Virus record (IMG/VR): IMGVR_UViG_2571042438_000008
DNA: 47,797 nucleotides
Reading direction: 5' to 3' (one strand)
Source: a virus
Lineage: Duplodnaviria; Heunggongvirae; Uroviricota; Caudoviricetes
The position numbers were made by a program, and so were the translations under genes. The notes below the pieces were generated by a model, which saw nothing but the letters and a program-made list of their open reading frames with translations, was not told where the DNA came from and made no database searches. This document shows, in pieces, positions 4,741 to 47,797 of this stretch (position 1 is its first letter; each line of letters begins with the position of its first letter).

Positions 4741-4780
4741 TATGATTGTGGGTGTCTGGTTGGAAAGTGACCAGATATGG

Positions 4781-4861
4781 AAACAAAAAGCCCGCAGATA
4801 AATCTGCGGGCTTCTTGCGACATCCACGGAAAACCAACAACTAACCATGGGCGCCTCGACA
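4781..4861 (-). ncRNA. Candidate CopA-like antisense RNA of the repA leader (~80 nt)
   Basis: Minus-strand perfect -10 TATAAT (plus coords 4868-4873) with weak -35; minus-strand intrinsic terminator (10-bp GC-rich stem 4789-4812 followed by a U-run); lies inside a 16-bp inverted repeat of the leader (4823-4838 / 4875-4890). Confidence 0.45.
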
Positions 4862-4905
4862 ACTCCCATTATACGTTGGTTTTCCGTGGACGCAAGAGCG
4901 AACAT

Positions 4906-5754
4906 ATGGATAGACCAATGCCGTCTCTACGTTCAGCTTACGTTTGTAATTTGTCGCCGGAGTTCCAGCCTCCAAAGCACCATACGCACAAGCTGCCGCT
5001 GGTGTTATCTGATGCTTTACAGCGCATTAATGGGCGTGATCTTACGTGTGAGGTTGCGTTCTACGTTAATCAACCGTCAGAGCGGAAGCGCCGGATAAAC
5101 GAGCATCGTCGTCGGGCGATTAATGCTGTGATCGCTGCGATTTTGCACCATGTAAACATCATTTCTAAGCGGGTTCTGGCCAGTGCTGAGGCGTTGGCTG
5201 ATTTTTGCGGCCTGTCTACCGTATCCGAAGCTGGGAACAAGTCTATAACGCGCTGTACAAGGGCGTTGTCGCAACTGAAAGCGTTAGGTTTTATTGATTA
5301 TGAACGTCGCTGGGATCGGGTGAATAAACAGTATTGGCCAGCGAAAATAGAGATTCGTGATCAACTGCTGGAAACCGTTGGTATTACTGAACAAGCATGG
5401 AGACGTGCGGTTAGCCAGAAACTTAATTACTTCAATGCGAAGAATAGCGAACGGCTTAAAAAAGCGATAACGGAGGCTGATTATAAGCGTATTGTTATTC
5501 AGGAGCAGATGGAGAATGTATGGCATCAGAGGAAGACGGCCAGAGAGATAAAGGCAAAACAGAAAGCAGCGGAGAGAGCTGCGCGTCTTGTTCGGGAAAA
5601 GGGAGAGGCCGAACTTCGTCATCAAATCACTAGAGAGGTTAGCCAGGAATTTGCTGATGGCATGTATCCTGGAGCTGACCTTGCATATTTACGATCCCTC
5701 GTTGAGCAGCGTTATAACAGGTTAAGAAAGACCTGGAAATCACTCCAACATTAA
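4906..5754 (+). CDS. repA: Replication initiator RepA, IncFII (RepFIIA) family
   Basis: Translation aligns with R100/R1 RepA1 as recalled (RRRAINAVIAAIL..., SITRCTRALSQLKALGFIDYE vs SITRATRALTFLSELGLITYQ); start chosen at the in-frame ATG 4906 by length; the ORF is open upstream to 4777. Confidence 0.85.
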   Translation: MDRPMPSLRSAYVCNLSPEFQPPKHHTHKLPLVLSDALQRINGRDLTCEVAFYVNQPSERKRRINEHRRRAINAVIAAILHHVNIISKRVLASAEALADFCGLSTVSEAGNKSITRCTRALSQLKALGFIDYERRWDRVNKQYWPAKIEIRDQLLETVGITEQAWRRAVSQKLNYFNAKNSERLKKAITEADYKRIVIQEQMENVWHQRKTAREIKAKQKAAERAARLVREKGEAELRHQITREVSQEFADGMYPGADLAYLRSLVEQRYNRLRKTWKSLQH

Positions 5755-8247: not shown

Positions 8248-8335
8248 ACCATTGCTGAAATGTCTTTTTCAAGACCTTGCCAATAAGCTAAACAAAAATG
8301 TTTAATGTGCAGCCTAAAAAAGCACCAGTCACTAT

Positions 8336-8448
8336 TATTTATATAATTATAGATTTATATAAAAAGTGCTTTACGGGTGGGAAAAAATTTCCTATGGTTA
8401 TACCCGAAACCGAGCGATACCCGCCCTGGTTAAACCGGAGATAACCCG
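8336..8448 (+). promoter_or_regulatory. Promoter-leader cassette, copy 1 (AT-rich dyad motif, -35 TTTACG 8370-8375, 17-nt spacer, -10 TATGGT 8393-8398, conserved leader, GGAGA RBS)
   Basis: ~88 bp near-identical to 17311-17398 and 24189-24276 (two substitutions seen in this copy); sigma70-like hexamers with 17-bp spacing. Confidence 0.55.
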
Positions 8449-8829
8449 ATGAGCATGATTAAAATCCGCAAAAACGCTTTCCTTAAAATTCAAACTATCC
8501 TGGCTGGTTCTGTCGGCGTGATTTGCCGTTCTTCTTCAAGCCGCATCGATGACGGCTACGATGATGAGTATCGTGTGTCCTCGTGCGATGAGGCTTTAAC
8601 CTGGCTGAAGGAGAATCAGGAACGTGCCCAGGTATATCTGGAAACAGAGAACGGCAATCAGATGCTGCGTATTAGCGGTCGTTATGGATTTGAAACTACA
8701 TTCATGGCCTATTTTAATCAGGCTTACTTTGACAAGGAGCTGGCCTGGTACACTGACCGCATGAGCAAAAGCGAGCCAGCCCCGATTACACCGCCGAACA
8801 ATAAACCATTTTTATTCCTCGTTAAGTAA
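8449..8829 (+). CDS. Hypothetical protein (126 aa), first gene after cassette copy 1
   Basis: ORF with GGAGA RBS 9 nt upstream; no recognisable domain. Confidence 0.5.
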   Translation: MSMIKIRKNAFLKIQTILAGSVGVICRSSSSRIDDGYDDEYRVSSCDEALTWLKENQERAQVYLETENGNQMLRISGRYGFETTFMAYFNQAYFDKELAWYTDRMSKSEPAPITPPNNKPFLFLVK

Positions 8830-9975: not shown

Positions 9976-11175
9976 TTATGGTCTGCTTTTCTGTGCCAGC
10001 TTATCAGCACATGTTTTTATCAGATCCTGTAGTGTCCTGGCTGGCAGGTTTGCATCCAGTACGCTGAGTATGCTGTTGTGATCTGCTTGGTCGACTACTT
10101 TGCCTGTCGGTGGTAGTAGCTTGAGCTGAGGATTCAGGTTTTCGTCAAAGCTGATAAGTGCTCTGGCGTTTCTGAGCAGATCAAGAAGTAAGGCTGATAT
10201 CACATTTTCCTGAGTCATTGCTGGCAGACTTAGCGCCGCTTTGGTTTTCCCTGTTGCCTTGTCAAACTCCTTGATTAGTTCCTTCCTGTAGTTCGGTTCC
10301 GTTAATAGCCGATTATGCTCTGTTGCCGCGCGGATAATCGTTTTTTCCTGGTATAGTCGTTTAGCCAGATCACGCTCGTACTGTGTTTTTAACACGCTGC
10401 TGATAGCGTTAAAGGCTTCAATGTAGGCCAGCTTGATATCTTTCACGCCTGGACCGTCGATGCTCTCCATGAGCAAGGTAAATCCGTCTTTTGTCATGCG
10501 ATAGATTGTTATTTCGCGGTCGCTTCCTTCCAGCGGTCGTTGCTCTTTAAAGAAGTGACGCGCCGCAGCCGTGCGAGGAATGCGTAGCGCATCGATGGCC
10601 ATAACGATGGAATTGTTTGTGGTGCTGAATGCCTGGGCAACATCGGCTGAGGTTGTGAGTGGCTCGTTGTTGCACACTTTAATGTAAAACATCGGTTTGG
10701 CGTTGAGCGTATCGACAACCTCACGAGCATTGCTTGGCGAGACGGTTACGGTCGCGGCCGTTTGCGCGTTCCGGCTGAAATAGCAGTCTTCCAGCCGTTC
10801 GAACACATCCCACGCTTGGTTAGTTTCAAGCATTTTGGCGTGACGTGCAGCCCCGCGTTCTGTCCAGAGAATGAGGGAGCGGGCTTTCGGGGAAATTTGT
10901 AACCCTCTTAAAGATGGTTGCACATTTTGTGAGTTACTTAAAGTAACCCGCAAATTTTGTGAGTGACTTAAAGTCACTCGCAAAGTTTTTAACTCATCGC
11001 CAGCCACTTTGAAAAAATGCTTTCCTTCAATAAAGCGGTTTGCGTTACGTGAGTAATTTTTTTTGATGTTATCAACGTCTGTGCCGTATAGCTTTGCCAG
11101 TAGTTCAGTAGTGATAACGGGGATCTGGTTATGCAGGATAGGCTGTAGGGTGTTAACGGTCGGAAGCGTTTTCAT
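9976..11175 (-). CDS. Antirepressor-like protein (ORF6N/KilA-N-like N-terminus plus Rha-like domain)
   Basis: N-terminal VITTELLAKLYGTDVDNIKKNYSRNANRFIEGKHFFKV and a central Rha-like segment, as recalled; 399 aa. Confidence 0.65.
   Translation of the reverse strand: MKTLPTVNTLQPILHNQIPVITTELLAKLYGTDVDNIKKNYSRNANRFIEGKHFFKVAGDELKTLRVTLSHSQNLRVTLSNSQNVQPSLRGLQISPKARSLILWTERGAARHAKMLETNQAWDVFERLEDCYFSRNAQTAATVTVSPSNAREVVDTLNAKPMFYIKVCNNEPLTTSADVAQAFSTTNNSIVMAIDALRIPRTAAARHFFKEQRPLEGSDREITIYRMTKDGFTLLMESIDGPGVKDIKLAYIEAFNAISSVLKTQYERDLAKRLYQEKTIIRAATEHNRLLTEPNYRKELIKEFDKATGKTKAALSLPAMTQENVISALLLDLLRNARALISFDENLNPQLKLLPPTGKVVDQADHNSILSVLDANLPARTLQDLIKTCADKLAQKSRP
10924..10983. repeat. Two tandem 30-bp repeats inside the antirepressor gene, each carrying a palindrome (GAGTTAC-TTAAA-GTAACCC; GAGTGAC-TTAAA-GTCACTC)
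   Basis: Units 10924-10953 and 10954-10983 differ at 3 positions, two of them compensatory for the inverted repeat; a degenerate third unit lies at ~10893-10923. Confidence 0.7.
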
Positions 11176-11399: not shown

Positions 11400-11658
11400 T
11401 CGAGGCTAATCAAATGGTGGTGAGCCGTACAGGGTTAGCCTTACCGGACACAATGACGAACCGGCGCGGATTTCTCCGCCCCTGTACGACCCACCATAAT
11501 TTGGGCGTAACAGTGCTCTACGCATAAAAAAACCGCTAACGCGGTATGCGCCATCGTGTTATTCAGGAGGCTAATCCCGGCCGTAGATTTTGCTACGGCT
11601 CGGAAAGTGTCCACCAATGGCGCATTTATGTCAATACGGCGGGATTTTAACAGAGACA

Positions 11659-11673: not shown

Positions 11674-12116
11674 TTTATTGGTAGGCAGAAACAAAAAAAC
11701 CGCCCTATTGAGGACGGTTCTTTCGTGCTGATCGGATTCGCGGTCCTTTCAGCATTACGTTGTTGTATAAACAACCACGCAAGCACAAGCAGCAAGTTAA
11801 TTTTACCCAAAAGGTAATAATAGTCCACTATTATGCTTCAAAAAATTGTGGTTCTTGTTGTGCCTGCAAACTCACAGATTGTGGGTAGGTTACTGATTTT
11901 GTGAAAATAAACGAGTTTTTTCGTTTAATTTCTTTCCTATTACTAATCTTAAAATAATCGTAAAATACCTGTGGACCTTCCCGCCGATTCGCACCCGGGC
12001 ACCGACTTTAGGGGAGGATTCTCCGTTGCCGTACATGCAAGCACAAGCAGCCGTGCTTGCTCTCGCGTTGTTTTCGTCGGTGGGGATGCCGTGAAACGGC
12101 CTGTAAGGGCCATACA

Positions 12117-12239
12117 ATGAAAAAATACTGTATGTGTATTTTTATCGTTGTTACTGGGGCTTTGTTTACGCCACATGGGGAGGGTTGGAAGATTACTGAT
12201 AACGCTCTGAATGTGACGATAAACATTAGCAGCAAGTAG
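12117..12239 (+). CDS. Small hydrophobic peptide (40 aa; MKKYCMCIFIVVTGALF...)
   Basis: ATG 12117 in an otherwise ORF-poor, hairpin-rich region; followed 7 nt later by a strong intrinsic terminator. Confidence 0.3.
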   Translation: MKKYCMCIFIVVTGALFTPHGEGWKITDNALNVTINISSK

Positions 12240-12245
12240 CGATTA

Positions 12246-12268
12246 GGCCCCTTCGGGGGCCTTTTTTT
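12246..12268 (+). terminator. Rho-independent terminator
   Basis: GGCCCC-TTCG-GGGGCC stem-loop followed by T7. Confidence 0.8.
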
Positions 12269-12490: not shown

Positions 12491-12739
12491 TTACTTCTGG
12501 TTGTATTGAGCCTTGAGTAACTCAAAAGACTTTGTCAGCACTTCTTTCAATGACATATCCATTGAGCTGGCGAACGTTTTGTACTCGCGTTTAAATTCAG
12601 GGTCGACGTTAAACGCCATTTGTGCCCCACCTGATTTGGTTCTGGTTGGCGTTTCAGTCGGGTCGAAAACCTGCGGTTGTTCGATCGATGGCGGTACGCC
12701 TTTGCTGTTCTTCTTTGGTGGTTTTGATGGTGCGGCCAT
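12491..12739 (-). CDS. ParG-like ribbon-helix-helix centromere-binding protein
   Basis: 82 aa; basic N-terminal tail (PSKPPKKNSKG); C-terminal FNVDPEFKREYKTFASSMDMSLKEVLTKSFELLKAQY resembles the ParG/RHH family; directly downstream of parA. Confidence 0.5.
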   Translation of the reverse strand: MAAPSKPPKKNSKGVPPSIEQPQVFDPTETPTRTKSGGAQMAFNVDPEFKREYKTFASSMDMSLKEVLTKSFELLKAQYNQK

Positions 12740-12782
12740 GTGTATCCCCTCTTATATAAATCTATAAAACTATAATTATATA

Positions 12783-13451
12783 TTATGCGGCAGTAGTCAG
12801 AGCCTCAAGCTGGTTGATAATCCCCTGAATAACGTCGTCTGCCTTTTTGCGTGGCGCAACGTATGAGCACTCAATGAGGCTTAAGCCCTTATCCTGAGCT
12901 TTGCTCAGAGCTGGCTTGTGGGGAATGTACTTATCGACAACAAAGTATGGCGTATTAGCCAGGTACTCTTGGGCTTCAATATAGTCAGCTTCGTTTTCAG
13001 CCGCGCCGGAAAACACCATGCAAATTTTCTTGATTGGTACACCCTTTTTAACGATGCCGTGAGCAGTGTTAACGGTGGTTTCCAGGTCATCGGTAGAGAA
13101 TCGGGTTGGCAAAATAACCATATCCAGAAATTCAGATAGCTTCGGTACTGATTCAGATGCGTAGGCACCGCCATCGACGATAACCAGGTCGTATACTTCT
13201 GATTCGATGATTTTCTGGACTTGTGATGGTGTGCCGCACGGCTGCGCCGCGATTGCTGGTTCGATATTGTTGGCCATTCTGCGTTGTACCCAACGCGTTA
13301 CCGTTCCGTTAAGCACATCCATATCGATCAGGCATACATTCCAGCCAGCCTTTGCATAAGCAACTGCTAAAGCACGGGCAATTGTTGATTTGGTTACGCC
13401 GCCTTTTCCGTTGAAAATACCTACAGAGATAGTCATTTGTCGAGGCTCCAT
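12783..13451 (-). CDS. parA: ParA/ParF-type partition ATPase (type Ib)
   Basis: Deviant Walker A GIFNGKGGVTKST; ~220 aa; the true start may be the ATG at 13436, which has a GGAG RBS. Confidence 0.85.
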   Translation of the reverse strand: MEPRQMTISVGIFNGKGGVTKSTIARALAVAYAKAGWNVCLIDMDVLNGTVTRWVQRRMANNIEPAIAAQPCGTPSQVQKIIESEVYDLVIVDGGAYASESVPKLSEFLDMVILPTRFSTDDLETTVNTAHGIVKKGVPIKKICMVFSGAAENEADYIEAQEYLANTPYFVVDKYIPHKPALSKAQDKGLSLIECSYVAPRKKADDVIQGIINQLEALTTAA

Positions 13452-13586
13452 GTGTTTGGTTATATAATTCTATAAATCTATATTTATAGAACGAGGTAAG
13501 CATAACCAACTTTTTGGCTGATGAAAAGCGTTTTATATAATTATATAAATCTATAATCATATAAGCGGGCGTTAGCCCGCTTGCAG

Positions 13587-14053: not shown

Positions 14054-14710
14054 TCATAACCAGTTGACAACACTAACTACGCGGCCAAGAACTTTATAAC
14101 GCTTAAATTCCTCGTTATTCAGATGCTTAGTGTTCATTTCAGCATCCCTTTCGGTTGACAGCATAACAGCATTGTCACCCGGTATGACTCTACAGTGCCT
14201 CAAAACAACCAGGCCATTTCTGTCTTCAAGGGCATAGATCCCCTCATGAATCTCTGTATCGTCTGTATTAATCAGGACTTGGGAGCCTGGGGATATTGTT
14301 GGTGACATTAACTCATCGTTGCTCTGGAGAACTGACAGAGACGATGGGTTGATGTTCTTGCTTCGTAGAATCTCCTGTTCTATCGCCAGCACTGGCTTTT
14401 CTCCGGCGTGCGATGCTATGTCATTTTTTATAGCTACAAGCCCAGGAATAACAGGAGCGTTAGTATTCTGGGGTGGGAACGGGTTATCTGTTAAGCACGC
14501 GATATAAGGCGCTGATGCTTTCAGGGCGTGCGCGATTTTCTTGATGGCAGGTATAGATGGTTGTCTTAATCCGGCCTCATAGTTCTGCAAGGTGCTTAAG
14601 CCTATTCCAGTGACTTGCTGGAGATCTCCGGCAGTCATGCCGGATTGTTTCCGTAGAGTCTGAATGCGCAGACCTATTTCTTTCTTGATGTTCTCGTCGT
14701 TGCTTTTCAT
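14054..14710 (-). CDS. CI-type prophage repressor (N-terminal XRE HTH plus C-terminal S24/LexA-like peptidase domain)
   Basis: HTH-like segment MTAGDLQQVTGIGLSTLQNYEAG; 218 aa with a C-terminal S24-type fold as judged from the translation; divergent from the cro-like gene with operators between. Confidence 0.85.
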   Translation of the reverse strand: MKSNDENIKKEIGLRIQTLRKQSGMTAGDLQQVTGIGLSTLQNYEAGLRQPSIPAIKKIAHALKASAPYIACLTDNPFPPQNTNAPVIPGLVAIKNDIASHAGEKPVLAIEQEILRSKNINPSSLSVLQSNDELMSPTISPGSQVLINTDDTEIHEGIYALEDRNGLVVLRHCRVIPGDNAVMLSTERDAEMNTKHLNNEEFKRYKVLGRVVSVVNWL

Positions 14711-14747
14711 GTCTCATCAATCGTGAATGGTGGGTTATTTATACATT

Positions 14748-14762
14748 ACCACATTTAGTGGT
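14748..14762. promoter_or_regulatory. Operator dyad ACCACATTTAGTGGT (cI-proximal)
   Basis: Perfect ACCAC-N5-GTGGT in the cI/cro-like intergenic region. Confidence 0.6.
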
Positions 14763-14829
14763 TTTCACATGGTAAGACGAGAGGTGGACCACAAATAGAA
14801 GGTTATTTTTTGTTTCGCCCATTGAAAAA

Positions 14830-14865
14830 CTCACGATATGTGGTTTTAATACCACGTATCGTGGT
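14830..14865. promoter_or_regulatory. Two adjacent operator dyads (CTCACGATATGTGGT 14830-14844; ACCACGTATCGTGGT 14851-14865), cro-like proximal
   Basis: Tandem dyads with 21-bp centre spacing just upstream of the 14885 start. Confidence 0.6.
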
Positions 14866-14884
14866 TTTAACTGGAGTTCGTTAA

Positions 14885-16857: not shown

Positions 16858-17235
16858 GTGAGACGCGATCTGGATAGCTTGTTTGAGCTATGGGCGCTGT
16901 GGGTGCGCAATGGCTGCAACGCCCGTAGCGGTTTCGCGTCGATGTTAGAAATGATGATGGTTACGCGCTGCCAGTTTACCGGAGGGGGCGGCGCACCAAA
17001 TGACTCACTGGAAACCAGTATAGAGGGAGCGGTGACGGCCCTCACGGTAGTTGATGAGACTGCGGCGCTGGTTGTCCGAATTGAATACGGGGCGTGGGAG
17101 ATTCGGGGCCTCGACATAAATGCACCGCATATTGATAAAGCCCACGCCCTTTCTCTTAGCCTCAGACAGTATCGCCGGAAGCTGGCAAAAGCCAGGGCGT
17201 ATGTTGTCGACTATTTGAAAAAGCGAAGAGAGTAA
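16858..17235 (+). CDS. Possible late-gene regulator (Q-like antiterminator candidate, weak)
   Basis: Last gene of the early operon, immediately upstream of cassette copy 2; N-terminal LFELWALWVRNG loosely resembles small Q proteins but lacks the Cys cluster. Confidence 0.3.
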   Translation: MRRDLDSLFELWALWVRNGCNARSGFASMLEMMMVTRCQFTGGGGAPNDSLETSIEGAVTALTVVDETAALVVRIEYGAWEIRGLDINAPHIDKAHALSLSLRQYRRKLAKARAYVVDYLKKRRE

Positions 17236-17286
17236 AAGTGTCATTTTGAGCTGTTTTGATGGTGTGTAGACATCGGGAACATCGAA

Positions 17287-17404
17287 AATCTATAAATATA
17301 TAATTATAGATTTATATAAAAAGTGCTTTACAGGTGGGAAAAAATTTCCTATGGTTATACCCGAAACCGAGCGATACCCGCCCTGGTTAAACCGGAGAAA
17401 TCTG
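17287..17404 (+). promoter_or_regulatory. Promoter-leader cassette, copy 2 (dyad AAATCTATA-N12-TATAGATTT, -35 TTTACA 17327-17332, -10 TATGGT 17350-17355, conserved leader, GGAGA RBS)
   Basis: Near-identical to copies 1 and 3 over ~88 bp; 17-bp spacer. Confidence 0.55.
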
Positions 17405-18472
17405 ATGAATAAACAAGTAATTATTTCTGACTGGATCAACAACCCTAACAGCCTGTTAAGCACTGATACTGGCTACCTATTACGCCATGTTAATGGTCGT
17501 ATGGTCAAAAGCGATGAGCACGAAACCTTTTTCTTTGTTGAAGACGATGGGCGTATCTATGAGGATGGTTACTCTTATGAAGCCCAAACTGGTTGTATCC
17601 CTGCGGAGCTGGTGGACGTAACAGAAGATCTGCGCAAAGCATGGCTTGAACAGCAGCAGCGCGGAGATGATTACGTAAACACCTATCAGGAACGCCAGAA
17701 CGCGCGTCTTGCCCGATATATTGCTCGTGCAGAAAAAGCCAGAAAAGAAGGTGCGGTAGCGCATAAGCGAGCGCATGACCTGTTGGATGTGATCCCGTTA
17801 GGCCAGCCGATTTTAGTTGACCATTATAGCGCGAAAGGCCATCGCCGCCGTTTGTCTAAAGCTGATGCGTTATTCAGAAAAGCGTTTGTTGAATGCGAAA
17901 GTAAAGCATCACACTACGAGAGCAAAGCCGCAGGTGTTGGTCGTAATGGAATTTCGTCTGATGATCCTGATGCGCTATTTAAGTTGCTTCGTAAGCTGCA
18001 AGGCTGCATGAAGTCACACGTCAAAATGAAGGCCGCAAATAAGGCCATTCGCAAATACAAAAAAGACCAAATACAGCAGCTTTCTGCATTAATCGATCTC
18101 AGGTTTACAGAAAGCGAAGCCAAAGAGTTACTGGCCGGAGATTTCTGTGGGCACATCGGATTCCCTTCATACGCACTGAGCAACAATAACGCCGAAATCA
18201 AACGACTACAGAGCCGTATTAAGGAGCTTGAATCGGTCAAGTCTGTAACAGGAGCACAGCGCGAAGAATACGACGGCTTTTCTATGGAGATAGATCCAGA
18301 GGATAACCGCATCCTGTTTTATTTCCCTGGCAAACCAGAGGCAAACATTCGTTCGCTGCTTAAATCACGCGCCTTTAAGTGGAGTCCAACCCGTAATGCA
18401 TGGGTTCGCAAGATTACTCCAAACGCCCTGGCTGATGCCCGATATCTAAAAGAATCGCTATTGAAAGCCTGA
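17405..18472 (+). CDS. Large hypothetical protein (355 aa), first gene after cassette copy 2
   Basis: Start set at ATG 17405 (GGAGA RBS); the upstream ATG 17351 lies in the conserved leader. Confidence 0.6.
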   Translation: MNKQVIISDWINNPNSLLSTDTGYLLRHVNGRMVKSDEHETFFFVEDDGRIYEDGYSYEAQTGCIPAELVDVTEDLRKAWLEQQQRGDDYVNTYQERQNARLARYIARAEKARKEGAVAHKRAHDLLDVIPLGQPILVDHYSAKGHRRRLSKADALFRKAFVECESKASHYESKAAGVGRNGISSDDPDALFKLLRKLQGCMKSHVKMKAANKAIRKYKKDQIQQLSALIDLRFTESEAKELLAGDFCGHIGFPSYALSNNNAEIKRLQSRIKELESVKSVTGAQREEYDGFSMEIDPEDNRILFYFPGKPEANIRSLLKSRAFKWSPTRNAWVRKITPNALADARYLKESLLKA

Positions 18473-18482
18473 CAGTAAGCCT

Positions 18483-18504
18483 ACGGCGGGACGTCTCCCG
18501 CCGT
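18483..18504 (+). terminator. GC-rich hairpin after 17405..18472
   Basis: CGGCGGGA-CGTC-TCCCGCCG stem-loop; weak U tract. Confidence 0.35.
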
Positions 18505-18528
18505 ATATAGAATTATATATTTATACAA

Positions 18529-18831
18529 ATGTATAAGGACGCCTCGACAATGAAACGCAAAATTATTAACCCCCAAGATGTGATTAATTTCCTGACCGAT
18601 CACCCATGTTCAAAAGTGGACGTAATCGCGGAGCACATTGGTGTGTCGCAGAACTCTATGCGTTGCAGACTGAGAAGCATGGTTGCCGAAGGACAGATAA
18701 CAACCAGGAAAATAAATGGTTGCCTGTACTACTCCGCTAAACCGGAATTGCCATTTGGCATGAATCCTAACTCCATGTTGTTTAACACCTTATTAGCCAA
18801 AGTTAAGCCGTTGAGAGGGGCTGTGGCATGA
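18529..18831 (+). CDS. Putative winged-HTH protein
   Basis: 100-aa ORF; DVIAEHIGVSQNSMRCRLRSM resembles an HTH. Confidence 0.4.
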   Translation: MYKDASTMKRKIINPQDVINFLTDHPCSKVDVIAEHIGVSQNSMRCRLRSMVAEGQITTRKINGCLYYSAKPELPFGMNPNSMLFNTLLAKVKPLRGAVA

Positions 18832-19193
18832 GCATCAAAACCCATACCGGAATAATCATTACCAATGATGGTGAGAAAAGAGTGAAGTTGCGCGAAACGC
18901 CGACAACCTGGTGTGTTGGTCCGAAAGAAACATATCGCAAGGAAGATGGCCGTCGTTGTGGGGCACCACTTTCCCGCCGTCGCCTCCTTTTGAGCACGAT
19001 AAAACCTATCGGGCAGGTTGAGCAACCAACGACTCCGGTAACGAAGATTTCAGACAAGAGTCTGGCAAACCTGATCGCTGATGCGGACAAGGTGCTGGAG
19101 CGGAACACCCCCGTTGCAGATGAGGAATGGTGGCAGGATTTCCGAGCCGCAATGCTAGAGCTTCAGGAACGTCGTCGGGAGGAGTTGAAGTGA
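18828..19193 (+). CDS. Hypothetical protein
   Basis: 121-aa ORF, coupled to neighbours. Confidence 0.4.
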   Translation: MSIKTHTGIIITNDGEKRVKLRETPTTWCVGPKETYRKEDGRRCGAPLSRRRLLLSTIKPIGQVEQPTTPVTKISDKSLANLIADADKVLERNTPVADEEWWQDFRAAMLELQERRREELK

Positions 19194-19381
19194 GCAAGAA
19201 AAATGCCGGATGGGTCAGGCCAATGAAGGCGAATAAACATCATTATTTTAATGAAGGTGAAGTAACCAGCATTTGCGGCCGTTGGATGTATTTTGGTGAT
19301 TACCGTGAGCCAGACACTTTTGAGAGTCCTGATGATTGCGTGTCTTGTCGCCGGAAATTGAACAAGGTGGCTTCTAAATGA
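19190..19381 (+). CDS. Small Cys-containing protein (possible Zn ribbon)
   Basis: GTG start overlapping the upstream stop; C..C ... C..C spacing (SICGRW ... DCVSCRRK). Confidence 0.35.
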   Translation: MSKKNAGWVRPMKANKHHYFNEGEVTSICGRWMYFGDYREPDTFESPDDCVSCRRKLNKVASK

Positions 19382-19989
19382 AAGAACGTGGTGTTGTTTT
19401 TAATGACGATATGGTTAGGGCCATCCTCGAAGGAAGGAAGACGCAGACTCGCCGACCTGTAAAAAATGTCAGGGCCGATAACTGCCTGGTTATCCGTAAA
19501 CCGACAAAGAAACGCAATGGTGTCTATACCCACGTTATGGATGCACTGGAACATGGTTTATGCCCGTTCGGTAACGTTGGTGATCGCATATGGGTCCGTG
19601 AAACATTCAACGCTTTTTGGCTGGATAACGATGTCATTCAGGAAATCAAAGATGGTGTCTCTCTGGCTTCTGAACTGTGTGATTACAAGGCTGATTACTC
19701 AGATAGTAGCAAGCCAGCTGAGGGCTGGACCCCGTCGATTCACATGCCGCGCTGGGCTTCGCGTATTTTGCTGGAAATTACCGACGTGCGTGTGGAGCGG
19801 CTGCATGACATGAGCGAGGCAGATGCTAAAGCAGAAGGCGCATCTCCGGTGACGTACAAGATTACACCGCCGGAAGCTGTTTATCGCGTTGGCTTTGGTG
19901 ATATCTGGCGCGGTATTTACGGGCAAGAGAACTGGCTATCTAACCCGTGGGTATGGGTAATTGAGTTTAAGCGTATTAAGGAAGCATAA
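19378..19989 (+). CDS. ASCH/PUA-like domain protein (tentative)
   Basis: N-terminal FNDDMVRAILEGRKTQTRRP resembles the ASCH GxKxxExR motif region. Confidence 0.35.
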   Translation: MKERGVVFNDDMVRAILEGRKTQTRRPVKNVRADNCLVIRKPTKKRNGVYTHVMDALEHGLCPFGNVGDRIWVRETFNAFWLDNDVIQEIKDGVSLASELCDYKADYSDSSKPAEGWTPSIHMPRWASRILLEITDVRVERLHDMSEADAKAEGASPVTYKITPPEAVYRVGFGDIWRGIYGQENWLSNPWVWVIEFKRIKEA

Positions 19990-19991
19990 CT

Positions 19992-20336
19992 ATGAGCAAA
20001 TCACTTAACGCACGCTGCATCCGTCGCTGGACCGTCGAATTTAAAGGCCGCTGCGACTCAAAATATAGCCCGTATTGGCGTAAGCGCGACCTGCGGGGGT
20101 ACATCCGTGAGGTTGCACTGAACACCGCGGATTGCATGGTCGAGCGTATGGCCGAGGATAATGCGATGGTAGATTTTCAGGGGGCTAATCGAGGATGGTC
20201 GCCGGAGTTCTCAGCCTGGTACCACGAACGCCGTGAACAGTATCTCAAAGAGGCGCGCGACCATCTGAACGAAGACGCCACCAATGACGAGGTTGACGAG
20301 GAGATTCAGAACGAGCTGGAGGCCTGGAATGACTAA
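19992..20336 (+). CDS. Hypothetical protein with acidic C-terminus
   Basis: 114-aa ORF. Confidence 0.4.
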   Translation: MSKSLNARCIRRWTVEFKGRCDSKYSPYWRKRDLRGYIREVALNTADCMVERMAEDNAMVDFQGANRGWSPEFSAWYHERREQYLKEARDHLNEDATNDEVDEEIQNELEAWND

Positions 20337-21045
20337 CAGCACAGCAATTAACTATCAGGCACTACGTGAGATAGCAAAACAGGCAACACAAGGCGAATGG
20401 GTCGCATTTATTTCGTCGGGTACTGGTACATATGCGGTGCATACACCCGGTGATAAACGATGTGAAGACGTTATCAAATGGACCGGCTTTGACGGACAGA
20501 AAAACGCAGAGAACAACGCTCGTTATATCGCAGCTTTCAACCCAGAAGTAGTGCAGGCGTTGCTGAATGAACGGGAAGCACAAAGCAAACGCATTGCTGA
20601 ACTGGAGGCCAGTCGTGCGGCGCTGGCGGCGGAGAATGCAGGGCTTAAGGCGATATGTGATGACCGTCGCAGGTTCATCATGAATGGGGTGCAGACGGGT
20701 TATATCAAGGTGCCAACAGCGGAAACAGCTCCAGACCTTGAGACAATTCGCATTGCTATATCACCACAAAAGCCCATTCCAGCCACCGATGCTTTCCTGG
20801 CTGAAATACGTGCGGAGGCACGCAACGAGGGGATTAACTACACCGCAAGCCGTCTTGCTGCTGCGTTCAATCACGGATTTATCAATAAGTCTTTGCGTGA
20901 AGTTTTCGACGTTACACGCATGATTTTGTCAGCGAAAGAAGAGTTGGCTAATGAACCGCACCCGATTGATGGCCTGTCCGGTGAATATGCGGAGAAATCT
21001 CTTGAGGAGTGGGCGGAACAGATTCGTAAAGGAGGCGACAAGTGA
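20332..21045 (+). CDS. Ead/Ea22-like protein (tentative)
   Basis: N-terminal QALREIAKQATQGEWVAF plus a central coiled-coil-like segment; start set at ATG 20332. Confidence 0.45.
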   Translation, partial: TNSTAINYQALREIAKQATQGEWVAFISSGTGTYAVHTPGDKRCEDVIKWTGFDGQKNAENNARYIAAFNPEVVQALLNEREAQSKRIAELEASRAALAAENAGLKAICDDRRRFIMNGVQTGYIKVPTAETAPDLETIRIAISPQKPIPATDAFLAEIRAEARNEGINYTASRLAAAFNHGFINKSLREVFDVTRMILSAKEELANEPHPIDGLSGEYAEKSLEEWAEQIRKGGDK

Positions 21046-21233
21046 GCAATTTAGCGAGGCTACGAGCAGTATTTAGATATTCAGAGCGGGTAATGAGGCA
21101 CATACAACCGAAAACATGGCAGAAATTGGATTCTGTGGGAGTTAAGTTGGAGAAGATTACTCAACTTAAGCAGTGGAATATCGGCGAATATTATGGAAGT
21201 CCTGGTCGGGATGTTCAGTTGGTAAAAAGTTGA
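21042..21233 (+). CDS. Hypothetical small protein
   Basis: 63-aa ORF. Confidence 0.3.
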   Translation: MSNLARLRAVFRYSERVMRHIQPKTWQKLDSVGVKLEKITQLKQWNIGEYYGSPGRDVQLVKS

Positions 21234-21379
21234 ACATTGCTTTTTTATTGATCGATTAACCACGATATGAAGGTTTTTTTATGGGGAAACCTTGTTTTAG
21301 GTGGTAACTGGGTGTAGTGTTTCATTTAACGTAGTAAAACTGCGTTAAGCGATTACCGCGTAATTTGTTGCTTTATGAA

Positions 21380-21410
21380 GCCCTGCCTTTTTCGGCGGGG
21401 CTTTTTTTTT
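21380..21410 (+). terminator. Strong intrinsic terminator immediately upstream of the lysis cassette
   Basis: GCCCTGCC-TTTTTC-GGCGGGGC stem-loop followed by T9. Confidence 0.8.
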
Positions 21411-21423
21411 AACGAGGATTTCA

Positions 21424-21819
21424 ATGTCAGCAGAACCAATTTCCGGTACGGCCGTTGCTGCTGGTGGCCTGATGGGTGCCAGCGTTTTTGGTATTGCAAC
21501 TGGTATTGATTACGGCGTTGTATTCGGGGCATTTGCTGGCGCTGTTTTCTATGTTGCTACAGCGGTGAATATTAGCCGTCTCAAGCTGATTGGCTATTTC
21601 TTTACATCGTTCATTGTTGGAGTGATTGGAGCGCCGTTAGTTGGCTCATTTCTTGCTAAATGGACCAGCTACAACGATCGTCCTCTGGATGCGCTTGGTG
21701 CGGTTATTGTGGCTGCATTGACCATTAAAATCCTCACGTTCGTAAACAGCCAGGATCTCGGTAGCATCTTTGGAATGCTTTCCCGCTTACGTGGAGGGGG
21801 TTCAAATGGTAAGCAGTGA
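21424..21819 (+). CDS. Holin-like membrane protein
   Basis: 131 aa, several hydrophobic segments, first gene of the lysis cluster. Confidence 0.55.
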   Translation: MSAEPISGTAVAAGGLMGASVFGIATGIDYGVVFGAFAGAVFYVATAVNISRLKLIGYFFTSFIVGVIGAPLVGSFLAKWTSYNDRPLDALGAVIVAALTIKILTFVNSQDLGSIFGMLSRLRGGGSNGKQ

Positions 21820-22102
21820 CCCGTCAGCACTGATTAATGCGGTGCTTTGCACAGTAATAGTAATGGCGCTGATGCTTTATCGACGGAAAGACTCCAGGCA
21901 TCGTCCATTTGTTTCCTTTCTGGCTTATATTTACGTCATTGTATACGCCAATGTTCCCTTCCGTTATGTGTTCGGTCTTTATCAAGAATCCCACTGGCTG
22001 GTGGTTATTGGAAATCTGATTATCTGCATCGTTGTTCTGTATTTCAGGGGCAATCTGGCGCGGATAGTTGACGCATTAGGGTTTAATCATGACCAAAGAT
22101 GA
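21806..22102 (+). CDS. Second small membrane protein (holin/antiholin candidate)
   Basis: Hydrophobic segments; start set at ATG 21806 (GGAGG RBS) inside track ORF 21770..22102. Confidence 0.45.
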   Translation: MVSSDPSALINAVLCTVIVMALMLYRRKDSRHRPFVSFLAYIYVIVYANVPFRYVFGLYQESHWLVVIGNLIICIVVLYFRGNLARIVDALGFNHDQR

Positions 22103-22631
22103 GATTTTTAACAGCGTTCTTGGAAAAGAGGGCGGCTATGTGGATCACCCTGACGACAAGGGAGGCCCAACAAAGTGGGGCATTACTCAGAACACTGCCC
22201 GTGCTCATGGATACCGTGGCGATATGCGCGATTTAACCCGCGAACAGGCACTGGAAATCCTTGAGGCTGATTACTGGTACGGACCACGCTTTGATCAGGT
22301 GGCCGCATTATCCTCTGATATTGCCGCAGAGCTGTGTGATACCGGTGTGAATATGGGGCCAACAGTGGCGTCCAAAATGCTTCAACGCTGGCTGAATGTG
22401 TTCAATCTGCGTGGGAAGCTGTATCCCGATTTGGATGCAGATGGACGAATCGGTCCACGTACCATTAATGCGCTGCGTGCTTATCTTGGGAATCGGGGAA
22501 AAGACGGCGAACGGGTGATGCTGACGTCGCTGAACTGTACGCAGGGCGAACGCTATCTGGAGCTGGCGGAGAAGCGCGAGGCGAATGAGTCGTTTGTCTA
22601 CGGCTGGATGAAAGAGCGAGTGGTGGTATGA
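22089..22631 (+). CDS. Endolysin, glycoside hydrolase family 108 type with C-terminal peptidoglycan-binding region
   Basis: N-terminal EGGYVDHPDDKGGPTKWGIT motif characteristic of GH108. Confidence 0.8.
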   Translation: MTKDEIFNSVLGKEGGYVDHPDDKGGPTKWGITQNTARAHGYRGDMRDLTREQALEILEADYWYGPRFDQVAALSSDIAAELCDTGVNMGPTVASKMLQRWLNVFNLRGKLYPDLDADGRIGPRTINALRAYLGNRGKDGERVMLTSLNCTQGERYLELAEKREANESFVYGWMKERVVV

Positions 22632-22906
22632 CTGGTTTGAAGGCCGTTTTGTCATTTATTGGCACAATTATATTGGTTGCATTCGGCGCGTTTGGTTTTG
22701 GTCGTATGAAGGGGCGAGAAAAGGCCGAAGATGAAGCTGAAAAGCAGCGCATTAATGAGAATGCAGCCGCCGTAAAAGCCACTGCGGAGCGGCGTATAGA
22801 AGTGACAAAAGAGGTGGGGAATGTACATCAGAGTGTTAACCATATGGCTGATGACGATGTTGATCGCGAGCTGCGGGAGTCGTGGAAGCGTCCCGGTGGT
22901 GGTTGA
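22628..22906 (+). CDS. i-spanin (Rz-like)
   Basis: N-terminal transmembrane segment then a charged coiled-coil-like region; follows the endolysin. Confidence 0.55.
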   Translation: MTGLKAVLSFIGTIILVAFGAFGFGRMKGREKAEDEAEKQRINENAAAVKATAERRIEVTKEVGNVHQSVNHMADDDVDRELRESWKRPGGG

Positions 22907-23030
22907 TACCGCCTGTGATTGGGTAAAGCCCATCTACCTGACTGATCACGATATCGATGTTATGGACCGCCAGACAAAGAAAGATATTCTGGCTCATAAC
23001 AGGGCATGGGAAATCAACTGCCCCAAGTAA
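22821..23030 (+). CDS. o-spanin (Rz1-like lipoprotein), partly nested in the i-spanin gene in the +1 frame
   Basis: Lipobox LIASC after a hydrophobic N-terminus; starts inside 22628..22906. Confidence 0.6.
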   Translation: MYIRVLTIWLMTMLIASCGSRGSVPVVVDTACDWVKPIYLTDHDIDVMDRQTKKDILAHNRAWEINCPK

Positions 23031-23199
23031 TATATATTTCTATAATTATATAAATATATAGTTACAACATTCTATGCGCTTTTCTCATGGGCGCACGCAT
23101 CAACCATGTTTGTCTGATATGCCGCCGCGCCCAAAAATCCTGAATTTATTGGCTGGGATTTTCGTGCGCGGCGCCACACCAGACAAACAGATCAAATAT

Positions 23200-23275
23200 G
23201 GCCCCTTAGCTCAGTGGTTAGAGCAGGCGACTCATAATCGCACGGTCATCGGTTCAAATCCGGTAGGGGCCACCA
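23200..23275 (+). tRNA. tRNA with CAU anticodon (Met or Ile2/lysidine type), 76 nt including CCA
   Basis: Cloverleaf elements readable: acceptor GGCCCCT/AGGGGCC, D-arm AGCTCAGTGGTTAGAGC, anticodon loop CTCATAA, T-arm GGTTCAAATCC, 3' CCA; close to E. coli tRNA-Ile2 as recalled. Confidence 0.85.
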
Positions 23276-23482: not shown

Positions 23483-23515
23483 AAGGGCATTAATCAGTCT
23501 GGTTAGTGCCCTTTT
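23483..23515 (+). terminator. Hairpin in the tRNA-distal noncoding region
   Basis: AAGGGCA ... TGCCCTT stem followed by TTTTCG. Confidence 0.35.
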
Positions 23516-23583: not shown

Positions 23584-24171
23584 ATGGAGGCAATTGCATT
23601 GTTTAATCTGATTTATGCAGATCCCCCCTGGGAATACAAAGATAAGTGTAAGGATGGGAATCGTGGAGCTGGTTTTAAGTATCCAACGATGAAAGCTGAG
23701 GATATTGCTCGTATTCCTGTCTGGCAGCTTGCTAATCCTGAATCGTGTTTGTTGGCCATGTGGTGGGTTCCGACTCAGCCAGAAGAAGCGTTGCTGGTGG
23801 TGAAAGCATGGGGATTCAGGCTTATGACCATGAAGGGCTTCACATGGAACAAATGTGGTAGCCGACAACCAGATAAGCTGGTGATGGGGATGGGGCATAT
23901 GACTCGTGCAAACAGTGAAGATTGCTTGTTTGCGGTAAAAGGCAAATTGCCGACCCGCCTTGATGCGGGGATCATTCAGTCGTTTACATCGCCTCGTCTG
24001 GAGCATTCTCGGAAGCCTGATGTGGTTCGTGACAAGCTGGTAAGGCTGTTAGGTGATGTTCCTCGTATTGAGCTGTTTTCTCGCGGTGATTTACCTGATG
24101 GTTGGCATGGCTGGGGCAACCAGTGCAATGGAGGTATCCAGTTGCATGATGCTCTCTGGCAAGTGGCATAA
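23584..24171 (+). CDS. MT-A70-family N6-adenine methyltransferase
   Basis: DPPW motif (LIYADPPWEY) and family-typical N-terminal layout. Confidence 0.8.
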   Translation: MEAIALFNLIYADPPWEYKDKCKDGNRGAGFKYPTMKAEDIARIPVWQLANPESCLLAMWWVPTQPEEALLVVKAWGFRLMTMKGFTWNKCGSRQPDKLVMGMGHMTRANSEDCLFAVKGKLPTRLDAGIIQSFTSPRLEHSRKPDVVRDKLVRLLGDVPRIELFSRGDLPDGWHGWGNQCNGGIQLHDALWQVA

Positions 24172-24282
24172 AATTATATAATTATATATTTATATAAAAA
24201 GTGCTTTACAGGTGGGAAAAAATTTCCTATGGTTATACCCGAAACCGAGCGATACCCGCCCTGGTTAAACCGGAGAAATCTG
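24171..24282 (+). promoter_or_regulatory. Promoter-leader cassette, copy 3 (-35 TTTACA 24205-24210, -10 TATGGT 24228-24233, conserved leader, GGAGA RBS)
   Basis: Near-identical to copies 1 and 2. Confidence 0.55.
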
Positions 24283-24749: not shown

Positions 24750-24771
24750 ACCGTAACGATAACGAACAACG

Positions 24772-24798
24772 AGCCTCGGCAATTGCCGGGGCTTTTTT
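24772..24798 (+). terminator. Intrinsic terminator
   Basis: AGCCTCGGC-AATT-GCCGGGGCT stem-loop followed by T6. Confidence 0.8.
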
Positions 24799-24823
24799 AC
24801 ATCCAGACAAAGGAGAACATGGG

Positions 24824-25463: not shown

Positions 25464-25470
25464 TCTTACA

Positions 25471-25499
25471 GCCTCGCGGTGTCGCGGGGCTTTTATTTT
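25471..25499 (+). terminator. Intrinsic terminator
   Basis: GCCTCGCG-GTGT-CGCGGGGC stem-loop followed by TTTTATTTT. Confidence 0.75.
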
Positions 25500-26155: not shown

Positions 26156-26779
26156 ATGACAAAACATCTTAATGTGGTTTCTTTACCACTTTCTGTGTTG
26201 ATTGGTTATGAAAAGAACGCTCGCACACACTCCGTGGAGCAGGTAGATCAGATTGTTGCCAGCATACAGGAGTACGGATGGACTAATCCGATCCTGATAG
26301 ACGAGAACAACGTTGTAATTGCTGGTCATGGTCGAATTGCTGCGGCCACTCAGTTGGGGATGGATGAGGTTCCCTGCATTGTTCTGGAAGGGCTAACGGA
26401 GAATCAGAAGAAGGCATATCGTCTGGCCGACAACCGTATTCCGCTGAATGCTGGTTGGGATGAAGAGTTGTTAAGCGCGGAGCTTGCAGATCTTGCGGCC
26501 GATGATTTTGCTCTGGACTCAATTGGTTTTACTCAGCGCGAACTGGATAACTTATTGAGTGCGGCGGTCTACGATGACACAGAGGGTATGGATATCCCAT
26601 TTGAGAAGGATGAGGCCAAATCAGGCGTAAAAGTTCAGTACCTGTCATTTGGAGGTCATAAAATCCCGGCAACGGATGAGGAAGCGGATCGTTTTGACTG
26701 CGCGGTGTCTCGTTATGTTGATGATAATGGCAGCTATATCGGATTTGTATCCGCATTGCTGGCTGGGGAGGTGTGCTGA
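26156..26779 (+). CDS. ParB N-terminal (ParB/Srx nuclease-like) domain protein, paralog 1
   Basis: LIDENNVVIAGHGRIAAATQLGMDEVPCIVL; paralogous to 29446..30036. Confidence 0.7.
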   Translation: MTKHLNVVSLPLSVLIGYEKNARTHSVEQVDQIVASIQEYGWTNPILIDENNVVIAGHGRIAAATQLGMDEVPCIVLEGLTENQKKAYRLADNRIPLNAGWDEELLSAELADLAADDFALDSIGFTQRELDNLLSAAVYDDTEGMDIPFEKDEAKSGVKVQYLSFGGHKIPATDEEADRFDCAVSRYVDDNGSYIGFVSALLAGEVC

Positions 26780-47261: not shown

Positions 47262-47797
47262 TATCTTTAATGTTAGCTTGTTGGATGTTTTACCTCCTAA
47301 CTTAGCTAGCGATCCCAACGTGATAGCTATGTCGAAAGCTATTGATGATGAACTACAAGCAATTAACAATTTAATATATAAGACAGAAATATATAGCGTT
47401 GTTGATAACCTGGACTCAGTTGTTCTCGATCATTTAGCTTGGCAATGGAATGCTGATACATGGAGGGATAGTTGGCCTGTATTGTTAAAGCGTTCTGTTT
47501 TTAAATCAATAATACGAACAAAGCGAATAAAGGGTACAAGGGCAGCGGTTGAAGATGTAGTAAATAGCTTGGGTGGAGAGGTAAACATAACAGAATGGTT
47601 TGAAACATCACCACCTGGCGAACCATATACAGCCTCAATTGTTGCTTCGATTAACTCTTTTGATGGTGCTGTTCCTTCGAAAGAGATGTTGGAGGATACG
47701 TTAAGAAGTATCAAGAGTGCAAAGTCGGCAAGAACACTATTTACATTTTCGCAAGCAACCAATGTTTCAGGTGGTGTTGGTATTGTCGGTGCTTTCC
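47254..47797 (+). CDS. Baseplate gpI-like protein, 5' part (open at window end; continues at 1..289 through the terminal duplication)
   Basis: ATG 47254 overlapping the gpJ-like stop; ORF not terminated within the window; frame matches 23..289. Confidence 0.65.
   Translation, partial: MADIFNVSLLDVLPPNLASDPNVIAMSKAIDDELQAINNLIYKTEIYSVVDNLDSVVLDHLAWQWNADTWRDSWPVLLKRSVFKSIIRTKRIKGTRAAVEDVVNSLGGEVNITEWFETSPPGEPYTASIVASINSFDGAVPSKEMLEDTLRSIKSAKSARTLFTFSQATNVSGGVGIVGAF
47547..47797. repeat. Terminal direct repeat: 47547..47797 is identical to 1..251
   Basis: Read directly: both begin ggttgaagatgtagtaaatagc and end gtcggtgctttcc. Confidence 0.9.

Follow-up and report, generated by a model that had tools for sequence, protein, structure and literature searches.

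In phage lambda and the Stx phages, the late switch is laid out as Q, pR′, tR′ and the lysis genes, and the Stx phages carry accessory genes between Q and S. A Cys cluster, or zinc finger, is a feature of lambda Q, whose fold is unrelated to that of the phage 21 Q protein (21Q). Lambdoid phages also produce short terminated pR′ leader RNAs. In N15, the Q gene reportedly lies kilobases from the late genes, with terminators between the late promoter and the first late open reading frame (ORF), and dispersed Sop sites, some of them right after Q and others ahead of the late promoter, are said to facilitate Q-dependent late expression. In 21Q (PF06530; Protein Data Bank (PDB) entries 6JNX and 6P18), helices H3–H6 adopt a sigma-region-4-like fold against which H1 packs, the H1 residues W26 and V27 contact the β′ dock, and H2 with its flanking loops detaches to form a ring in the RNA exit channel (PMC6606751). 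In both lambda and phage 21 the Q-binding element sits between the −35 and −10 hexamers, in phage 21 as a direct repeat, and a −10-like element in the initial transcribed region gives a sigma-dependent pause where Q loads (PMC6606751). Here we compare these systems with a locus of IMG/VR virus record IMGVR_UViG_2571042438_000008, a stretch of 47,797 nucleotides referred to as the window. The window represents a whole circular phage-plasmid of 47.5 kb from E. coli and shows 100% identity to p142_C (NZ_CP048340.1), a circular E. coli plasmid of 47,545 bp. Its exact 251-nt terminal duplication (1–251 = 47547–47797) reflects a circular genome and not a biological repeat, since p142_C is deposited as a circle of 47,545 bp. 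The gene in question, 16858..17235, encodes a 125-amino acid (aa) relative of 21Q that probably acts as an antiterminator for the terminators at 21377, 24771 and 25470. The phage group to which the element belongs most likely uses a lambda-style read-through switch for its late genes.

The Q-like gene (16858..17235, + strand) has a GTG start and is deposited in NZ_CP048340.1 as CDS WP_001250512.1, ‘hypothetical protein’. Its weak resemblance to small Q-type antiterminators, pointed out in a preliminary description of the window, proved to be real remote homology to the 21Q family. A profile of 109 family sequences, run with hmmsearch against the PDB, matches the phage 21 Q chains of 6JNX and 6P18 with an E value of 4.4e-5 over 21Q residues 12–95, LELWGAWV in 21Q corresponding to LELWARWV in the Q-like family. 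Comparison of the family with an alignment of PF06530 proteins by hhalign yielded 93% probability and an E value of 3.3e-7 over 76 columns; the 21Q segment aligned by the family profile is itself PF06530 (E 8.6e-23). PF06530 is matched weakly by 10 of the 109 family members, with a best E value of 1e-4. A narrower profile of 24 sequences returned from the PDB only the Tc3 transposase helix-turn-helix (HTH), at E 0.19. AlpA of Pseudomonas aeruginosa (PDB 7XYB) matches the family more weakly than 21Q does; it is chromosomal and controls a cell-death locus (PMC9371919). In the PHROG scan of the 125-aa protein the sole strong match was phrog_5285, a family without assigned function, and phrog_35346 was marginal. 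Homologues of the same length form 31 clusters, all named ‘hypothetical’, and an exhaustive profile search gave 130 family clusters at 50% identity, all of 110–165 aa.

The predicted fold agrees with the sequence comparison. The AlphaFold (AF2) model (pLDDT 77) comprises an N-terminal helix, a low-confidence segment (residues 23–46) and a four-helix HTH domain that resembles sigma region 4 and on which the N-terminal helix packs, as expected because the 21Q structure has the same helix layout (PMC6606751). The LELWxxW helix, which in 21Q contacts the β′ dock, is conserved. Residues W12, A13 and W15 are nearly invariant in the family, and W15-V16 align with W26-V27 of 21Q. The most conserved block, GFASMLEMMMxTRCQFxGGGG (residues 25–47), aligns with H2/L2 of 21Q and coincides with the low-confidence segment of the model. 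Both correspondences are at the level of the alignment only. The HTH varies much less between lineages than the CI repressors do, consistent with a DNA target that is itself conserved. Both proteins are small, although 21Q has 162 aa. The Q-like protein has no Pfam match to the lambda Q family (PF06323) and no Cys4 zinc-binding cluster; Cys conservation is limited to two residues in the close family and is absent from the wider one. The lack of a Cys cluster had earlier been raised as a doubt about the assignment. Since such a cluster belongs to lambda Q, with its unrelated fold, its absence is no argument against a Q21 assignment. The 21Q structure paper names zinc only for the RNA polymerase zinc-binding domain (PMC6606751). 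We regard the 125-aa protein as related to the Q21 family but divergent from it, and as too remote for the Pfam model; its homology and fold are computed, and its antitermination activity is inferred.

Relatives were examined at 23 loci with Q-like homologues of 34–100% identity, plus some downstream extensions; the contig of the 34%-identical relative (L023) ends too early to inform. The conserved gene order is repressor, early genes, Ref-like nuclease, DUF1064 protein (in some relatives) and Q-like gene. As stated in the preliminary description, the Q-like gene is the last early gene: in the window it follows the Ref-like nuclease and DUF1064 protein genes, and in every lineage examined it closes the early-right operon. 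The position of the 21Q gene at the end of its early operon is the same.

Strong terminators ahead of the late genes are a further feature shared with phage 21. The one preceding the holin gene (21377..21410, + strand) has an 11-bp stem (21377–21387 pairing with 21394–21404), a 6-nt loop and a run of nine T residues at 21402–21410, with ΔG −20.5 kcal/mol. Its folding energy (z −5.1) was equalled by 0 of 200 shuffles. The four elements of the preliminary description all exist at the positions given there. The 8-pair G+C core and the T-run are as recorded in it, the core being part of the 11-bp stem, and the distance from the T-run to the holin ATG at 21424 is 13 nt and not 14. These 13 nt, AACGAGGATTTCA, include the Shine-Dalgarno sequence, and the holin itself is a clear PF16931 member (E 1.7e-37). 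A scan of the + strand over 17355–21424 detected no sigma-70-like site, in agreement with the earlier view that no obvious promoter separates terminator and holin. In 21234–21376, immediately upstream of the terminator, hand-picked candidates such as TTGTTT-17-TAGTGT were weak and were rejected. No promoter fits in the 13 nt after the T-run, and therefore holin transcription must pass the terminator.

A strict search of the + strand over the whole 47.8 kb identified only five strong intrinsic terminators: one at the end of a ryfA-like RNA, one late in the tail genes, and those at 21377, 24771 and 25470. Thus, three of the five precede lysis or late genes. The terminator at 24771..24802 (+ strand, ΔG −18.8 kcal/mol) follows the first two small late genes and precedes the rest of the late operon, and the one at 25470..25499 (+ strand, ΔG −16.6 kcal/mol) is upstream of the ParB_N-domain, packaging and structural genes. 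They lie 0.5 and 1.2 kb, respectively, past the third of three promoter cassettes described below, behind a few small ORFs. The early-right operon, from 14885 onward, has no strong terminator through the Q-like gene up to 21377; the pre-holin terminator is therefore the boundary between early and accessory transcription and lysis. Intrinsic terminators between a candidate promoter and the late genes, as in Q21-type systems, are found at all three positions, and these positions are conserved in relatives. The earlier proposal that lysis and late expression probably depend on read-through is supported in its core by this layout, and read-through control of the late genes is well supported by inference. 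As in lambda and the Stx phages, the putative late regulator comes from the early operon, the promoter appears constitutive, accessory genes intervene and a terminator precedes the lysis genes. However, tR′ of lambda directly follows pR′ and the terminator here stands at the far end of the accessory genes. Likewise, the terminators of phage 21 are just downstream of the promoter, whereas those of the window are 0.5–4 kb away, after accessory genes.

The 190-nt intergenic region between the last accessory ORF and the holin gene is strongly structured (z −4.3). It includes a conserved, small-RNA-like pre-lysis leader (21252..21376, + strand) with two hairpins and a G/U-rich stretch; conservation and structure extend over the 140 nt ahead of the terminator. 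Within it, a 75-nt block (CCTTGTTTTAGGTGGTAACTGrGTGTAGTGTTTCATTTAACGTAGTAAAACTGCGTT) is invariant in two close relatives, L012 and L013, although the neighbouring protein is only ~55% identical, and parts of the block recur in L032, of a lineage whose Q-like protein is 50% identical. Leader and terminator together (21252–21409) match the GcvB model over its full length with 34.3 bits, below the gathering score of 42, and the homologous region of L013 scores 28.4 bits. These properties speak for an explanation in which the terminator is the 3′ end of a small RNA (sRNA) or of an RNA derived from a 3′ untranslated region (UTR), spanning approximately 21252–21409 at the end of the early and accessory operon, and in which lysis genes are expressed by constitutive partial read-through or from a weak leader promoter, with no phage protein involved. 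We consider this unlikely: no acceptable sigma-70 promoter was found upstream, the GcvB score is under threshold and the homologous region of L032 gives no match, and the two late-operon terminators are left unexplained. Moreover, even with an sRNA role, polymerase would still have to get past the terminator for the holin gene to be expressed, and such a role is compatible with control by the Q-like protein, as in the case of the short terminated pR′ leader RNAs of lambdoid phages. The leader may be a terminated leader RNA or a 3′-UTR-derived RNA with a function of its own alongside such control. GcvB identity was rejected on the grounds of score and of the missing L032 match, and the similarity is kept as an unexplained observation. 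A BLAST search of the leader against all phage records found only the same lineage, and no convincing promoter was found for it. An ACCAC/GTGGT pair (21259/21301) flanks the first leader hairpin; its halves are 37 nt apart in the window and 11 nt apart in L032. The 9-mer CACGATATG, which recurs in the CI operator region, is not conserved in L012 and L013 and is probably a chance occurrence.

The sites at which the Q-like protein might load are suggested by a repeat of ~115–127 nt, present in three copies (beginning at 8334, 17291 and 24169) of 85–100% identity. Its 20-nt core, GGGAAAAAATTTCCTATGGT, is found exactly three times, where 0 would be expected. Each copy comprises an AT-rich array, a sigma-70-like promoter, a conserved leader, GGAG and ATG. 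Cassette 1 (8331..8448, + strand) heads a 126-aa gene (8449..8829) and cassette 3 (24166..24282, + strand) stands at the head of the late operon, whose ATG is at 24283. Cassette 2 follows the Q-like gene, as had been described, and begins 52 nt past its end. Its array (17288..17321) is composed of four 8-bp units with a TATA core, ATCTATAA ATATATAA TTATAGAT TTATATAA. The promoter (17327..17355, + strand) consists of TTTACA (17327–17332), a 17-nt spacer and TATGGT (17350–17355), with the inverted repeat GGAAA-AAA-TTTCC in the spacer at 17337–17349. In the leader (17356..17404, + strand), a hairpin at 17365–17388 carries a −10-like GATACC in its loop and is followed by GGAG at 17394–17397. Because the cassette includes GGAG and ATG, the downstream genes start at the cassette ATGs, 17405 and 24283, as RefSeq also annotates; for the DUF3560 gene behind cassette 2 the start is 17405 and not 17351.

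Cassettes of three lineages differ in sequence yet share one architecture: array, A-run, promoter and leader. The −35 hexamers are TTTACA, TTGCGC and TTGTCA and the −10 hexamers TATGGT, TATTAT and TACTAT. In each lineage an inverted repeat in the 3′ part of the 17-nt spacer abuts the −10 hexamer, namely GGAAA-AAA-TTTCC in the window, AGGACT-AAA-AGTCCT in L015 and GGTC-AAAAA-GACC in L021. The initial transcribed region is conserved and ends in the hairpin, then GGAG and ATG. At about +11 to +17, in the hairpin loop, stands a hexamer whose second base is always A. Given where Q binds and where polymerase pauses in lambda and phage 21, the spacer repeat is a candidate Q-binding element and the −10-like hexamer at ~+12 a candidate pause element. 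The cassette as a whole is a candidate loading site for the Q-like protein. Three near-identical candidate loading promoters would then exist here, compared with one in phage 21. A direct repeat in the initial transcribed region of the window, TATACCCG / GATACCCG, was also considered as Q-binding element and rejected, as it is not conserved in the L012 and L013 cassettes.

Conservation of the cassette leader extends far past the promoter, and across six cassettes 93.8% of the hairpin cells are paired, as against 18–44% in slid controls, with two compensatory pairs and with the hairpin kept in the lineage of 50% Q identity. This could point to antitermination by RNA, the leader hairpin acting in cis like HK022 put RNA or as a nut-like site for another phage protein, and the Q-like protein having a different role. 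The sequences are few, however, and the covariation is weak (10 of 500 shuffles reached the observed score). At −9.9 kcal/mol (z −1.8) this small hairpin has only mild stability, the leader has no match in Rfam, and a hairpin at the 5′ end could equally well serve mRNA stability or the control of translation. With a homologue of a known antiterminator present, RNA-based antitermination appears very improbable.

Comparison with the relatives indicates which parts of this layout are kept. L012 and L013, in which the Q-like protein is 93% and 89% identical and other genes 50–80% identical, share the plan of the window, with cassettes at the same three places. Both their pre-lysis terminators and those behind the first late genes differ from the window in the stems, and the differences are compensated. 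In the lineage of L021 and L032 (Q 50% identical), the Q-like gene is followed by a cassette, several kb of genes and a strong terminator ~50 nt before the holin gene. The lineages of L003/L015/L016/L017, of L018 and of L019 (Q 54–65% identical) each have a strong terminator before the holin gene as well, at a distance of a few tens of nt in most and ~430 nt in L018. The whole group thus shares a design in which a terminator stands shortly before the lysis genes, and relatives of 50–93% Q identity keep its position but not its sequence. In lineages of 59–65% Q identity, 3–5 cassettes head consecutive one-gene units near the replication region (L015 1591–3490; L016 1130–3355; L022 1234–3600). 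Each of these cassettes has an array, then TTGCGC-17-TATTAT and a leader whose hairpin base-pairs with the Shine-Dalgarno region; several of the units end in a strong terminator. By eye, their leader stem shows a compensatory change, TTCAT..ATGAA against CTCAT..ATGAG.

Taken together with the 21Q structure, these features suggest how the switch might operate. After inactivation of the CI-like repressor, the early-right operon would be expressed, with the Q-like protein as its last product. It would load on RNA polymerase started at the sigma-70 promoters of cassette 2 (17327) and cassette 3 (24205), its conserved flexible segment corresponding to the 21Q segment that forms the exit-channel ring. 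Polymerase loaded in this way would become resistant to hairpin-dependent termination. It would then read past 21377–21410 and transcribe the genes for holin, endolysin and spanin; past 24771 and 25470 it would reach those for packaging and structural proteins. Without the Q-like protein, transcripts of the early operon and of cassette 2 would stop 13 nt before the holin gene and lysis would remain off.

Several observations weigh against antitermination by the Q-like protein as described. The 125-aa protein by itself matches no Pfam family at E ≤ 0.01. The sequence match to 21Q is limited to the N-terminal two thirds of the Q-like protein, and annotations throughout the phage group read ‘hypothetical’. 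The spacer repeat of the cassettes is inverted whereas the 21Q element is direct. In L001 the gene after Q overlaps it, and in the L015 type the Q-like gene is trailed by an array only, with no cassette promoter, and the cassettes stand near the replication region, where they head short units of promoter, gene and terminator. The link between Q-like gene and cassette is therefore not universal. In the lineages of 54–65% Q identity, the lineage's own array lies 0–15 nt upstream of the holin terminator, accompanied in L003, L015 and L017 by a −10-like hexamer, which hints at a dedicated site at that terminator that has no counterpart in the lineage of the window.

The best fold matches of the Q-like protein also belong among these points, since they are sigma region 4 domains and leave room for a plain DNA-binding regulator. 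The protein could be a sigma-region-4-like activator or repressor of the cassette or array promoters, late genes being controlled by promoter activation and the terminators being leaky or serving as insulators. A few family members do match models of extracytoplasmic function (ECF) sigma factors or of sigma region 4 (Sigma70_ECF models are matched weakly by 6 of the 109). Nonetheless, a resemblance to sigma region 4 is seen in 21Q as well, and both the flexible segment and the motif of the N-terminal helix can be aligned specifically to 21Q, not to sigma factors. Only ~45 residues precede the region-4-like domain, and these align with H1/H2 of 21Q; a protein of 125 aa leaves no room for sigma region 2, and it does not have the makeup of an ECF sigma factor. 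No promoter fits in the gap between terminator and holin gene and two further terminators lie in the late operon, so promoter activation alone would not give late transcripts. A role as promoter regulator is for these reasons improbable, and antitermination is the preferred reading of the Q-like protein.

The AT-rich part of the cassettes recurs elsewhere in the window. The pattern TATA-N4-TATA-N4-TATA, with at most one mismatch, has 25 occurrences at eight intergenic loci, compared with 0.08 expected. The loci are the three cassettes (8331–8364, 17288–17321 and 24166–24199), three positions around parA (12752–12785, 13460–13493 and 13533–13566), the region before a MarR-like gene (18497–18538) and the region after the lysis genes (23022–23071). 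Related lineages have arrays at equivalent places, and at the parA promoter in every lineage, with lineage-specific sequences such as GATATAAAGATATATTTATATC, TTAAATAAATATTTAA and TTAAAGAAATCTTTAAA. A small ParA is encoded at 12783..13451 (− strand) and an 82-aa protein directly downstream of it, at 12491..12739 (− strand). In the 82-aa protein, the N-terminal half is basic and disordered, and towards the C-terminus an extended segment is followed by two helices. Residues of the putative strand covary with the type of array (QMAFNV, PLNFNV, LMNFNV, QLLFRL and QLLLQL), and an Arg-to-Gln change in the strand coincides with loss of a G in the array repeat unit.

These properties resemble those of ParG, and also those of omega of pSM19035, which is a global repressor. 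Like the 82-aa protein, ParG of TP228 is the partner of a small ParA and has a flexible N-terminal tail and a C-terminal strand-helix-helix, and its boxes and spacers form arrays, direct and inverted, at the par promoter and at further sites. Its parH and OF sites, which serve as centromere and operator, consist of 4-bp boxes with 4-bp AT-rich spacers in both orientations (PMC3130281). Unlike the sites of ParG and omega, the boxes here are TATA-like and the arrays are spread over phage promoters; moreover, fold and sequence searches of the 82-aa protein did not confirm a ribbon-helix-helix fold, and the ParG-like assignment accordingly stays at the level of likeness. The arrays are probably bound by the ParG-like partition protein, and for the AT-rich part of the cassette this role is more likely than one within the promoter proper. 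Bound there, the ParG-like protein could modulate the cassette promoters. If the assignment is true, sites of a partition protein lie after the Q-like gene and at the late promoters.

The arrangement invites comparison with N15 as it is reported: both elements are phage-plasmids, in both Q is far from the late genes, terminators stand ahead of the late genes in both, and both have dispersed partition-protein sites, which in the window are predicted. They differ in that N15 has SopA/SopB of type Ia with inverted-repeat sites, whereas the window has a small ParA, a ParG-like protein and arrays of 8-bp period; a link between partition and late expression is said to have been proposed for N15 and is predicted here from the sites. 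A genome-wide regulon can be imagined, in which the ParG-like protein, on lineage-specific arrays at the par promoter, after Q, at the cassettes and at the lysis terminators of sister lineages, couples the partition or copy state to the Q-dependent late switch as a type Ib counterpart of the Sop-Q link of N15, and in which the pre-holin transcript is a GcvB-like, Hfq-dependent sRNA acting on host mRNAs. This wider scheme is speculative and on the whole doubtful.

The remainder of the element conforms to a phage-plasmid. Besides the lysis genes, it has tail and head genes in full complement. An IncFII-type RepA is encoded at 4777..5754 and a CI-like repressor with an S24 peptidase domain at 14054..14710 (− strand). 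The CI-cro intergenic region (14711–14884) contains several ACCAC-N5-GTGGT inverted repeats, probable CI operators, whose half-sites are present in the L021 lineage too. An ORF6N/pRha antirepressor (9976..11175, − strand) has just upstream of its gene matches to C4 antisense RNA (11413–11501, − strand, 70.8 bits) and to isrK (11526–11599, − strand, 68 bits), a combination that resembles the immI module of P1 and P7. Such a module would be a second induction route beside the S24-type CI repressor. RNAs of the ryfA type encode a small toxin, and a strong ryfA match (11971–12267, + strand, 141.8 bits) between the antirepressor module and the par genes, ending in a terminator at 12245–12262, points to a possible addiction module. 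Between cassette 2 and the pre-holin terminator, the accessory genes (17405..21233, + strand) encode the DUF3560 protein, the MarR-like protein (from 18550, behind its array), several proteins without assignment, an Ead/Ea22-like protein and a 63-aa ORF product. The lysis cassette (21424..22906, + strand) comprises the holin, a second holin (PF05449), a GH108 endolysin and a spanin-like ORF. A tRNA-Met (CAT) gene (23200–23275, + strand) lies between the lysis genes and an MT-A70 methylase gene, with an array and the conserved motif AGTTACAACATTCTAT upstream, the latter also present in L003 at 14491, and with a long hairpin (23483–23513, ΔG −19.7 kcal/mol) downstream. Just past the second late terminator are two adjacent genes for ParB_N-domain proteins (26156–26779 and 26773–28152, + strand), the second of which additionally has a methyltransferase domain. 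The pSLy3 phage-plasmid group is part of the SSU5 supercommunity, whose elements are ~100 kb in size, and membership of the window in that group was ruled out on this ground. Yersinia phage HQ103 is an unrelated 32-kb phage.

Three isolated Yersinia myoviruses are 97–98% identical to the window over the region studied, and the element is therefore a working phage-plasmid. With 309 matching plasmid records, mostly from E. coli, in addition to these phages, the type is common, yet nearly all of its regulatory genes are labelled ‘hypothetical’ in databases. A switch of this kind is unsurprising in principle, as it follows the late switch of lambdoid phages; what is new is a divergent, unannotated branch of Q21 proteins and an unusual layout. 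Recognition of the Q-like protein as Q21-type provides a testable function for a family that numbers at least 130 clusters (at 50% identity) and extends the sequence range of Q21-like proteins past Pfam detection. The same reading would explain why lysis and morphogenesis are silent in the plasmid state. The layout is a compact system for studying how one antiterminator serves several promoters, and its three candidate loading promoters, far-end terminators and partition-type arrays would allow a test of whether partition proteins gate late transcription, as has reportedly been proposed for N15.

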